A DNA stretch of 28,042 bases from Thermotogota bacterium (GTDB taxonomy: Bacteria > Thermotogota > Thermotogae > Petrotogales > Kosmotogaceae), in assembly GCA_034660555.1 (NCBI GenBank), contig JAYEJL010000006.1, forward strand, positions 1 to 28,042, written 5' to 3'. The notes beneath the pieces were generated by a model that had not been told where the DNA came from, made no database searches, and saw only the letters and a program-made list of their open reading frames with translations. The number at the start of each line of letters is the position of its first letter. Position 1 is the first letter of the stretch. Shown piece by piece: positions 13,940 through 15,838 of this stretch. The translations under genes and the position numbers were made by a program.

Positions 13940-14920
13940 TCAACTCCCTGTTATTTCAACGCCTTCCATAACCAAAATATCTGCCCGATCGATTAAAGTT
14001 TCAGGCAAACTGATGTCCAGTGCTTCTGCAAGATCAACGTCAACATAAAGAACCAAAGAATCTGCTCCTACTATCTTCGATTCAATTTCTGAAGGATCTT
14101 TGCCCTGTAAAATTTCAAAAACTATCTTTCCCGTTTCTCTACCAACACTATAATAATTAAAGCCAAAACCTATCAGTCCTCCACCTCTTGCAACATCAAT
14201 GTCTGCCGCAATTAAAGGTACCTTATTATTTCTTGCTATATTACCTATAGATTCAATACTTGAAGCTGCCGTGTTATCTGTTCCAACATAAAGGGCATCA
14301 ACGTCAGAAATCAATGCATTAAGAGAAGAAATCATCTCTGGTGCAGTAGTACCTGTAATTTCGATTAACTCCATTACCAGTTCCTGACACGCTTCCTTTG
14401 CAAAATCTGTAATTACAGCTGAATTTGTCTCACCGGGATTATATATAATTCCTACAGTTTTAATATCAGGATCAATTAGTTTTATCAATCTGAACTGGGT
14501 TAGTACCGGAGTCATATCACTTATACCAACTACATTTCCTGAATTAAACCCAAAATTCTCAATTAATGAAGCAGCAATTGGATCGGTCACAGCAGAAAAT
14601 ACTATAGGGATATTCTTGATAACGTTCACACATGCTTGAGCTGAAGGCGTAGCAATTGCAACAACAACATCTGGCTTAATAGATAGAAAATGTTGAGCTA
14701 TCGAAACTGCAGTGTTCATGCTACCTTGAGCGCTTTGAAATCTAACTTCAAAGTCGGACCCCTGTACAAGCCCGTTGTCCTTTAGTTCATCTATGACACC
14801 CTCTCTCACAGCATCCAGTGCGGGATGCTCGACTATCGCTGTGATCACAATAAGATCTGTTGAAAATGCTGAAAATATCATTAGAAAAACAACTGCAAAA
14901 ACCAAAACCAACCTTTTCAT
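13940..14920 (-). CDS. ABC transporter substrate-binding protein, COG2984/TrpX-like (aromatic amino acid)
   Basis: IVEHPALD, AIATPSAQ, PIVFSAVTDP, GIIYNPGETNS, TDN motifs; signal peptide; start ATG 14920 after AGGAGGTG. Confidence 0.9.
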   Translation of the reverse strand: MKRLVLVFAVVFLMIFSAFSTDLIVITAIVEHPALDAVREGVIDELKDNGLVQGSDFEVRFQSAQGSMNTAVSIAQHFLSIKPDVVVAIATPSAQACVNVIKNIPIVFSAVTDPIAASLIENFGFNSGNVVGISDMTPVLTQFRLIKLIDPDIKTVGIIYNPGETNSAVITDFAKEACQELVMELIEITGTTAPEMISSLNALISDVDALYVGTDNTAASSIESIGNIARNNKVPLIAADIDVARGGGLIGFGFNYYSVGRETGKIVFEILQGKDPSEIESKIVGADSLVLYVDVDLAEALDISLPETLIDRADILVMEGVEITGS

Positions 14921-14935
14921 ACACACACCTCCTAG

Positions 14936-14970
14936 AATAAAAAAGAGGGTATCCGTTTTGGATACCCTCT
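14936..14970 (-). terminator. attenuator terminator in the 5' leader of the ABC operon
   Basis: Perfect 11-bp stem AGAGGGTATCC-AAAAC-GGATACCCTCT followed by TTTTTATT, immediately before the SD of the binding-protein gene. Confidence 0.9.
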
Positions 14971-15003
14971 CGTTATTAATCGTCTGACTATGCCATGGCA
15001 CAT

Positions 15004-15081
15004 TTAGGCAAAGCCACAAGAGGGCTTTGTCTTATACCAGTAAAAGTTAACAAATTGTGCCAGTCGCATTTGATCAGTCAT
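15004..15081 (-). CDS. attenuator leader peptide MTDQMRLAQFVNFYWYKTKPSCGFA (25 aa)
   Basis: SD GGAGG (15092-15088) 6 nt before ATG 15081; TTT-GTT-AAC-TTT-TAC-TGG-TAT cluster at 15054-15034; TAA 15006-15004. Confidence 0.82.
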   Translation of the reverse strand: MTDQMRLAQFVNFYWYKTKPSCGFA

Positions 15082-15107
15082 AATAATCCTCCAAAATTGC
15101 TTATCTT

Positions 15108-15137
15108 TTTATACCACAAATCGGAAGCAAAAGTCAA
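15108..15137 (-). promoter_or_regulatory. sigma70-type promoter of the attenuator/ABC operon
   Basis: TTGACT-18 nt-TATAAA with an extended -10 TG. Confidence 0.7.
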
Positions 15138-15284
15138 ATAACTGACGGACTATTACTAAAATAAAATATATTCCCGGCTCAAAAACATTAATATTAATAT
15201 GTTAATCAACAAATAGATAAGTAAGTTTATCCGGTTCAATCAAGATGATGATAAAACAAATAAACTAAAATGAGGGGTGAAAAG

Positions 15285-15776
15285 ATGATTAGCGAAAAAT
15301 TGGTTAAACTTATTAATGATCAGATCAAAGCTGAGCTTGAGTCTGAGTATATTTACCTTGCAATGGCAGTATGATGTGCAAAAGAGGGTTTTACTGGGGC
15401 ATATAGCTGGTTGGTCAAACAGTCTGAAGAAGAGCATGCACATGCAATGGAATTTATAGAATATCTCAAATCAAGTAATGCTGAGGTTATTATTCCTTCG
15501 ATATCAAAACCAGACACAAGTTTTGATTCTTTGCTTGATATTTTTGAAAAAGCCTTCGAACATGAAAGGTATATCTCTTCACGGATTTTCAAACTTGTAG
15601 ATAGTGCTGTTGAAGAAGATGACAAATTTACTTAAGATTTTCTTTCATGATATGTGGAAGAACAAAGAGAAGAAGAAACAACTTTCAATTTCGTCGTAAA
15701 GAAAATCAAGCTTGTGGGATCTAATATTCATATTCTAATGATGATCGATTCCATGCTCGCAAACAGAGAAGATTAG
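15285..15776 (+). pseudogene. ftn: non-heme ferritin with three in-frame stops
   Basis: SD GAGGGGTGA; MISEKLVKLINDQIKAELESEYIYLAMAV*CAKEGF...QSEEEHAHAM...HERYIS...DDKFT*DFLS*YVEEQREEE...LANRED. Stops are TGA 15372-74, TAA 15633-35 and TGA 15648-50; 163 codons, no frameshift. Confidence 0.92.
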
Positions 15777-15838
15777 AAGAGAGTAAATTACTGAACATTT
15801 CATTTTCTATTATGCAAACTTTTAGTATTATTTAACAA

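Follow-up and report, generated by a model that had tools for sequence, protein, structure and literature searches.

A probable leader-peptide attenuator upstream of a TrpXYZ-type importer operon in Thermotogota

Described leaders and the locus in the window

The trpL and pheL leaders of Escherichia coli are described by a segment-order model in which RNA segments pair as 1:2, 2:3 or 3:4. The locus compared with them here lies on the minus strand, at 15137-14939, of a 28,042-nucleotide (nt) stretch of DNA from a Thermotogota bacterium (assembly GCA_034660555.1, contig JAYEJL010000006.1), referred to below as the window. It is a regulatory leader, and in all likelihood a ribosome-mediated (leader-peptide) transcription attenuator that controls a TrpXYZ-type ATP-binding cassette (ABC) importer for aromatic amino acids. 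As in trpL and pheL, a short, putatively translated leader with codons for the regulated amino acid is combined with an intrinsic terminator and an antiterminator that shares the terminator 5' arm. A further upstream hairpin would form when no ribosome stalls, and the terminator is thermodynamically favoured, the decision being kinetic. The window's leader differs from trpL and pheL in having no sequence or Rfam-model similarity to them, in targeting a transporter instead of a biosynthetic operon, and in mixing codons for Phe, Tyr and Trp. Moreover, its antiterminator 5' strand is formed by the apical 5' side and loop of the upstream hairpin (P1) and not by that hairpin's 3' arm, and a stalled ribosome must therefore halt just short of the strand. 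Rfam searches at the gathering score, and over 14880-15160 at E up to 10, returned no amino-acid leader family (Trp, Phe, His, Leu or Thr); the best sub-threshold match, an L20 leader, scored 24.1 bits where 58.7 would be required. The Rfam T-box model did not match at the window.

In the Bacillus subtilis trp leader, the TRAP protein binds (G/U)AG repeats on the 5' strand of the antiterminator. The two leaders are alike in that termination follows once this strand is occupied, by TRAP there and, as proposed, by a translating ribosome here. Unlike the B. subtilis leader, the window has no (G/U)AG repeats; the longest run of TRAP-type triplets spaced 2-3 nt was 0, and 15101-14935 holds 4 GAG/UAG in total. 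The TRAP-controlled leader is mentioned in a survey of cis-regulatory RNAs in 11 Thermotogales genomes (PMC3766115). As that survey presents them, the amino-acid attenuators catalogued are only those for His, Leu, Thr and Trp, they lie mostly before biosynthetic genes, and their origin is possibly in the gamma-Proteobacteria.

The general mechanism of leader-peptide attenuation is summarised in a review (PMC11802643), which also describes the aroR-aroF locus of Corynebacterium glutamicum (Neshat et al. 2014), where the aroR leader contains Phe-Tyr-Phe and is reported to respond to Phe, not Tyr. Likened by this description, the two loci share a mixed-aromatic leader peptide and a reliance, here proposed, on ribosome stalling, and aroR-aroF offers a precedent for codon-dependent sensitivity. 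Unlike the window's leader, it is actinobacterial, has a biosynthetic target (DAHP synthase) and contains no Trp codon. An operon of the same type, trpXYZ of Streptococcus suis, has a T-box leader whose terminator is read through when tryptophan is short (PMC9382623). According to that account, the S. suis leader senses uncharged tRNA bound by the RNA, and not a translating ribosome as envisaged for the window.

No account of an aromatic leader-peptide attenuator in Thermotogota turned up in the literature searched, the predictions of Vitreschak et al. 2004 and of Merino/Yanofsky lying outside the comparison. As a mechanism this is textbook material; the family, widespread in Thermotogota, is an uncatalogued one, and its geometry is unusual. 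The abstract of the Vitreschak et al. paper (FEMS Microbiol Lett) is said to mention candidate attenuators in Thermotogales, which could overlap this finding. The attenuation principle would here operate in a deep-branching, largely thermophilic phylum, governing uptake and reading three amino acids together.

Switch elements and their conservation across Thermotogota

Between a candidate promoter and the first structural gene sits a short open reading frame (ORF) with its own ribosome-binding site (RBS), and between this leader ORF and the gene stands an intrinsic terminator. All features lie on the minus strand. The leader ORF (15081-15004; 25 codons plus TAA at 15006-15004; peptide MTDQMRLAQFVNFYWYKTKPSCGFA) is preceded by GGAGG at 15092-15088, 6 nt 5' of its ATG (15081). 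It carries an aromatic run, FVNFYWY, ahead of the gene for a PF04392 binding protein; the regulatory codons are F10 (15054-15052), F13 (15045-15043), Y14 (15042-15040), W15 (15039-15037) and Y16 (15036-15034). The terminator (14971-14939), picked by an independent terminator scan, consists of a 12-bp stem (14971-14960 x 14954-14943) with 6 G-C pairs, the loop AAAAC and a six-residue U-run (14944-14939) whose first two residues still belong to the stem. The 166-nt leader folds with z = -5.46, and none of 200 shuffles was as stable. The candidate promoter (15137-15108), read from the sequence, comprises a -35 element TTGACT (15137-15132), an 18-nt spacer, and TGG followed by the -10 element TATAAA (15113-15108); the promoter scan did not list it because its rule demands T at the final -10 position. 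A promoter-like motif, TTGAC-N18-TGTGGTATAAA, is kept before leaders of other genera (L003, L005 and L009) despite the divergence of the leaders themselves.

The initial annotation had proposed that a 10-bp pairing with two G.U pairs, overlapping the 5' arm of the terminator, acts as an antiterminator. The pairing is present where it was placed, on the minus strand. Its 5' strand, GCCCUCUUGU (DNA GCCCTCTTGT; 15025-15016), comprises the top of the P1 5' arm and the P1 loop, and its 3' strand, ACGAGAGGGU (DNA ACGAGAGGGT; 14973-14964), overlaps the terminator 5' arm by 8 nt. The strands form 10 antiparallel pairs, 8 Watson-Crick and 2 G.U, and antiterminator and terminator are mutually exclusive, as had been claimed. 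When the whole leader (15081-14982) was run against the terminator 5' arm with RNAduplex, the top duplex was this one, at -17.6 kcal/mol, which makes it the best partner that the leader as a whole offers to that arm. For dinucleotide-shuffled leaders the value was -9.8 ± 2.0 kcal/mol against the same arm, and 4/2000 matched the real duplex. In the read-through state an auxiliary hairpin is predicted at 15015-14986 (GGCU/AGUC at 15015-12 x 14989-86 and UGCC/GGCA at 15010-07 x 14994-91); in the predicted fold of the window it would sequester the P1 3' arm within the antiterminator loop. At 37 °C the calculated energies were -14.5 kcal/mol for the antiterminator core, -24.3 for the antiterminator with the auxiliary hairpin and -20.7 for the terminator. 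The corresponding values at 60 °C were -7.8, -12.9 and -12.8 kcal/mol.

Homologous leaders were collected upstream of binding-protein homologs (E ≤ 1e-40), which were found at 84 places in 70 of 151 Thermotogota genomes. Upstream DNA was taken for 82 of the 84, two genes at contig starts being left out, and one region (L101) was excluded whose match begins at residue 70 and contains a stop, leaving 81 regions from 68 genomes. These were scanned for an intrinsic terminator preceded by a small ORF that contains an aromatic run, and 79/81 were positive. Curation corrected the terminator calls in L091, L093 and L099 and removed the mis-picked ORFs of L064, L081, L083 and L100, resulting in 75 leaders. 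A covariance model of P1 and the terminator matched 77 of the 81 regions and 67 of the 68 genomes, counts that measure consistency and not discovery because the model was trained on the same sequences; it regained L081 and L083, which carry a WWW leader, and weakly L100. The standard leader is missing in 4/81 regions. L064 and L079 have no leader upstream, L046 has just 199 nt of upstream sequence to a contig end, and L096 (G086:C10) is atypical, with a short ORF ending NNWWWHL followed by two terminator-like hairpins in series, and is matched by neither covariance model. Upstream of four Spirochaetota/Brevinematales homologs of the binding protein (37-42% identity), neither an aromatic leader nor a terminator was found. 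In the window's own genome, a search for a second copy with covariance model R2 gave one strong match, the window copy (94.4 bits); the next reached 31.1 bits (E 0.019).

An in-frame aromatic run is present in the leader peptide of every clade, although the peptides vary: QFVNFYWYKTKPSCGFA in the window's genus and, in other clades, FAYAYWFRRNVLS, FYFYWQVPSWRNLS, FAYAYWWFRGMPSS, QYFYFWYWKDTQLGAF, YYYWYGKGIHK, FYFYYFWWKALS and WWWKRTLS. All 75 leaders have at least 3 aromatic residues within 8 codons, and 67 of them are preceded by an RBS-like motif. The best 8-codon window held a mean of 5.35 aromatic codons in frame versus 1.84 and 2.17 in the other frames, a comparison that is partly circular because the ORFs were chosen by that score. 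As a control, RBS-preceded ORFs with at least 5 aromatic residues in 8 codons were counted, and occurred in 39/78 real regions, 2/390 dinucleotide shuffles and 0/78 reverse strands.

Absence of the antiterminator pairing from homologous leaders had been named in the initial annotation as the outcome that would speak against the switch. Instead, the pairing is kept, with compensatory changes across the phylum. Each of the 75 leaders contains a strand that can pair with the terminator 5' arm; it begins at an offset of -1 to +11 nt from the first base of the last aromatic codon, a conserved spacing, and the duplex energies are -8.8 to -25.7 kcal/mol (mean -19.1). Compared to shuffles the duplex has a mean z of -4.47, and in 55/75 leaders none of 200 shuffles was as good; an equal-length upstream control segment gave -6.8 kcal/mol and was beaten by the antiterminator in 75/75. 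These shuffle controls overstate significance because the sequences are related, a point taken up again below. Terminator stems differ by clade (AGAGGG, GAGGACG, GGGUGUC or GUGGAUGCC) and the leader strand is altered to match, so that CCCUCU is found with AGAGGG, ACGUCCUUUCU with AGAGAGGACGU, GACACCCA with UGGGUGUC and GGCAUCCAC with GUGGAUGCC. The encoded residues shift along with the stem type (PS, NVLS, DTQ and GIH). They change just as the RNA pairing demands, and the constraint therefore acts on the RNA and not on the peptide.

When the alignment is fitted to the antiterminator, the share of paired cells is 80.7%, versus 69.3% when shuffled (0/500). In an alignment fitted to P1 and the terminator, 78.8% of antiterminator cells are paired versus 68.6% (0/500), the antiterminator covariation score is 0.328 versus 0.181 (0/500), and double changes occur in 9/10 pairs; the homologous terminator helix is 91.4% paired, with double changes in 12/12 pairs. 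These covariation counts depend on model-guided alignment, because an alignment by MAFFT alone gave no pairs. Slid registers all score lower, the best being 64.7% at +1, which reflects a one-column register shift in Petrotogaceae-type leaders. A matrix of cognate and non-cognate terminator arms had its diagonal best in 6/9 rows and 4/9 columns and is only partly informative because several stem types are related. A count of the pairs enclosing the antiterminator strand (64/75 real leaders vs 0.77 of controls) does not discriminate, and this measure was dropped. The roughly 80 natural variants, with co-varying terminator, antiterminator and peptide, could serve as a test set for models of co-transcriptional folding and make up a candidate new RNA family.

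Ribosome position and the local hairpin

The antiterminator 5' strand is enclosed in a local hairpin, CAAAGCC-CTCTTGT-GGCTTTG at 15029-15009, as had been noted from the first. This 7-bp hairpin is real, but it is only the apical part of a longer stem, P1, at 15039-14996, a candidate anti-antiterminator. P1 consists of the inner hairpin CAAAGCC/GGCUUUG (15029-15023 x 15015-15009, perfect complements around the 7-nt loop CUCUUGU), AG/CU (15032-31 x 15007-06) and an outer stem UGGUAUA/UGUGCCA (15039-15033 x 15002-14996), the 5' arm of which is formed by the W15 and Y16 codons. The local fold of 15045-14990 has an energy of -17.7 kcal/mol, compared to -11.4 ± 2.6 for shuffles (18/1000 as low). Inner and extended P1 were calculated at -8.6 and -16.5 kcal/mol at 37 °C, and extended P1 at -8.7 at 60 °C. 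Proposed at first as a candidate anti-antiterminator or pause hairpin, the 7-bp hairpin exists, but it is weaker than the antiterminator and fails to hold the strand at equilibrium. In the folding model, any such role must be kinetic and shared with the longer stem and a long-range helix; only the barrier estimates given below suggest a kinetic role for P1.

In other clades, 16 of 18 representative leaders that were folded have a hairpin at the equivalent place, with unrelated sequence. These hairpins often begin in the last aromatic codons, and the antiterminator strand is again the apical 5' side and loop. In the alignment, 64.0% of P1 cells are paired versus 57.7% when shuffled (0/500), with a covariation score of 0.324 versus 0.213. 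Pairing reaches 69.9% in the inner helix, where 9/9 pairs have double changes, and 56.4% in the outer helix. The long-range helix (15077-15056 x 15002-14984) comes from the minimum free energy fold and encloses P1 in ribosome-free RNA. It involves leader codons 2-9, and in the single-sequence fold weaker pairs extend to the start codon. Support for this helix is thin: among 5 sequences of the window's genus, RNAalifold found 2 of its pairs with compensatory changes. The helix could keep ribosomes from re-initiating on terminated transcripts, or could impose termination on RNA that is not being translated.

Ribosome positions were modelled under assumed values for the footprint (A site -15 to +12), the energy parameters (37 °C), heuristic findpath barriers and the growth temperature. 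Folding of the full-length transcript at equilibrium under ribosome masks cannot test the switch, because the terminator wins everywhere; the transcripts were instead cut before the terminator 3' arm and the ribosome footprint was masked. In the window, the modelled antiterminator probability was 0.17 with no ribosome, 0.85-0.95 with the A site at codons 2-15, 0.74 at Y16, 0.00 at codons 17-25 and 0.03 at the stop codon. The initial annotation had suggested folding under footprint constraints at each codon. With cut transcripts this yielded the expected pattern, a high antiterminator probability to codon 15 and almost none from codon 17, but with full-length RNA the terminator always won. Its further claim that a ribosome at the TAA covers the antiterminator strand agrees with the values of 0.00-0.03 for codons 17-25 and the stop.

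Barriers to refolding from the pre-formed structure to the antiterminator were estimated by folding just the stretch that the ribosome had not yet reached. This procedure replaced one in which RNA on either side of the ribosome could pair, and which gave artefactual ribosome-spanning helices. With the A site at F10 the barrier was 16.2 kcal/mol, at F13 10.9, at Y14 10.2, and at W15 and Y16 4.4 each; from K17 onward the antiterminator was unable to form. At 60 °C the barriers from F13 to Y16 converge at about 5 kcal/mol, with F10 at 11.6. A sensitivity that differs by codon position, as had been anticipated, agrees with this model, in which it would be graded from W15/Y16 through F13/Y14 to F10. 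A stalled ribosome was also expected to mask the 5' arm of the 7-bp hairpin. This is so at W15 and Y16, but at F13 and Y14 the ribosome reaches only the outer extension, and at F10 nothing.

The same geometry was assessed in the 75 leaders by folding only what lies 3' of the ribosome, whose leading edge was set at A site +12; codon positions are given relative to the last aromatic codon. Antiterminator availability was 0.95 at -9 to -3, then 0.85, 0.77 and 0.56 at -2, -1 and 0, and at most 0.02 from +1. The median refolding barrier was 10-12 kcal/mol at earlier positions and fell to 6.9, 5.6, 5.2 and 4.3 at -3 to 0, where 75-100% of codons are aromatic. In the footprint model, the last aromatic codon lies one codon short of the boundary at which the antiterminator strand is occluded. 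The two profiles indicate that the aromatic run occupies a narrow window in which P1 is opened and the antiterminator strand is still uncovered.

Translation of the leader ORF, ribosome stalling, kinetic competition and the transporter's substrate enter the proposed mechanism as putative steps. Transcription would start about 20 nt upstream of the 25-codon ORF, and the cluster F13, Y14, W15 and Y16, together with F10, would sense how well tRNA-Phe, tRNA-Tyr and tRNA-Trp are charged. With ample amino acids, the ribosome would continue over 15025-15016 and would occupy that segment or the stop codon as the terminator 5' arm is being made. Once it is released, P1 (15039-14996) and the long-range helix would re-form, the terminator (14971-14943) would then fold, and the transcript would end ahead of the operon. 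In shortage, a ribosome stalled at the aromatic codons would melt the base of P1 with its leading edge. GCCCUCUUGU would be left free just ahead of it and would capture ACGAGAGGGU once made; with the P1 3' arm held in the auxiliary hairpin and the terminator blocked, RNA polymerase would read into the operon. The core of the initial interpretation, in which antiterminator excludes terminator and ribosome position decides, is retained here, while the role it gave to the local hairpin needs refinement.

Several observations weigh against this mechanism. At equilibrium, the full transcript forms the terminator with p of about 0.98 at every ribosome position; the terminator is the equilibrium state and the switch must therefore be kinetic. 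In most leaders the cut transcript has its terminator 5' arm sequestered even without a ribosome (0.84) or with one at the stop codon (0.80), and what decides for OFF is therefore folding kinetics together with the timing of transcription and translation; in the model, the OFF state needs P1 to form first and the timing to be right. The organism may grow near 60 °C, where inner P1 has only -3.9 kcal/mol. Comparative support for P1 is moderate (64% paired, 56% in the outer helix), and its register varies between clades. Both structural alignments come from covariance models and are biased towards the modelled structure, and the relatedness of the sequences inflates the shuffle-based significance, as said above. 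Finally, RNAalifold on a sequence-only MAFFT alignment of 73 leaders found 0 consensus pairs, the terminator included, because registers shift between clades.

An alternative is a three-segment attenuator, in which the ribosome alone covers or exposes the antiterminator strand. P1 would then either make RNA polymerase pause, and so keep transcription in step with translation, or be a by-product of the strand's sequence. The antiterminator beats P1 at equilibrium whenever its strand is free. Occlusion by itself is enough to produce an abrupt ON/OFF transition, one codon beyond the last aromatic codon, and the terminator and antiterminator helices both covary more strongly than P1. In the Petrotogaceae-type leaders L091, L093 and L099, a U-run follows the P1 hairpin, which the scan had picked as terminator-like; it resembles a pause or terminator signal, as a pausing role for P1 would have it, and may mark a place within the leader ORF where the polymerase pauses or meets a first terminator. 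Nevertheless, in most clades the stop codon lies 39-54 nt beyond the final aromatic codon, too far along for a ribosome that has reached it to keep the strand covered; the strand must then be held by something else, for which P1 is the only candidate. In addition, the pre-terminator region is stabler than shuffles (mean z = -2.3; 49/75 leaders below -2), double changes occur in all 9 inner P1 pairs, and the modelled barrier drops stepwise as P1 melts. A switch of this three-segment kind is considered unlikely.

A switch that needs no translation is much less probable still. Here a riboswitch or a protein-binding leader, TRAP-like or T-box-like, would sense aromatic amino acids or tRNAs directly, and the small ORF would be incidental. 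The conserved RNA structure would suit such a sensor, and a T-box controls the related trpXYZ operons of S. suis, as described in PMC9382623. However, no Rfam family, T-box included, reached threshold and no run of (G/U)AG triplets was seen. What is conserved is an in-frame run of aromatic codons behind an RBS and start codon, while nucleotides and the F/Y/W mix vary by clade and paralog, and sequence conservation is low outside the helices (mean column identity 53%). Least probable of all is a TnaC-like arrest peptide, in which nascent peptide and free aromatic amino acid would stall the ribosome and signal excess instead of shortage: residues after the run are conserved within clades (KPSCGF, RGMPSS) and a substrate could in principle regulate its importer, but these residues (PS, NVLS, DTQ, GIH) change between clades as RNA pairing requires, an intrinsic terminator with an antiterminator suits starvation sensing, and induction of an importer under substrate excess would be unusual.

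The regulated operon, its paralogs and a neighbouring reading frame

The operon downstream of the leader (14933-12221, minus strand) begins with the RBS AGGAGG (14933-14928), followed by three genes: a substrate-binding protein gene (14920-13940; Pfam PF04392, 244.7 bits), a permease gene (13935-12904; BPD_transp_2) and an ATPase gene (12931-12221; ABC_tran). The binding protein scored 233.6 bits with the NCBIfam TrpX model (ABC_SBP_TrpX equivalog), under the curated cut-off of 390, and is by these sequence matches a relative within PF04392 and no TrpX equivalog. It matches the PDB structures 3lkv, 6hni and 3lft with E of 7e-63 to 8e-42. According to Table 1 of PMC10443332, the ligands of three PF04392 structures are L-Trp, L-Tyr and L-Phe, and a leader rich in Phe, Tyr and Trp codons therefore suits the operon's cargo. 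TrpXYZ of S. suis is presented in PMC9382623 as an experimentally supported tryptophan uptake system under T-box control. The operon at 14920-12221 probably encodes a starvation-induced importer of aromatic amino acids, its likely substrate range being judged from the leader codons and the solved PF04392 structures.

In genomes with several TrpX-like operons, each operon has its own leader of distinct aromatic make-up. The three-operon genomes G062 (L051, L054, L060), G061 (L055, L058, L063) and G063 (L045, L057, L059) carry F[AV]FAF, Y[GY]FWY and YAYY leaders, the three operons standing in tandem on one contig in G061 and G062. Paired operons (L047-L049 and L081-L083; G009, G013, G017) have FYFYYFWW and WWW leaders.

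The variety of leader codons suggests that codon content tracks transporter specificity, giving a sequence-only hint to whether a transporter is generally aromatic or Trp-, Phe- or Tyr-biased. A broader interpretation is put forward tentatively, as one that could about as easily prove wrong as right, with the balance tipping slightly towards the former. The leaders would form an ancient, phylum-wide, uncatalogued attenuator family with wiring inverted relative to the classical model, the antiterminator strand residing in the apical 5' half and loop of the anti-antiterminator and the ribosome acting both as opener of P1 and as direct occluder. The F/Y/W mix, as in WWW, F[AV]FAF, YAYY, FYFYYFWW or the FVNFYWY of the window, would be tuned to the substrate of each paralog. 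If this is true, the ligand specificity of a PF04392 binding protein that is otherwise unassignable could be predicted from its leader.

On the plus strand, a ferritin-like ORF at 15285-15797 runs divergently from the leader promoter and contains three in-frame stops: TGA at 15372-15374 (AMAV*CAKEG), TAA at 15633-15635 (DKFT*DFLS) and TGA at 15648-15650 (FLS*YVEEQ). Both TGA codons fall at what we take to be ferritin Trp positions. Possible explanations are a pseudogene, an error in the assembly, or recoding.

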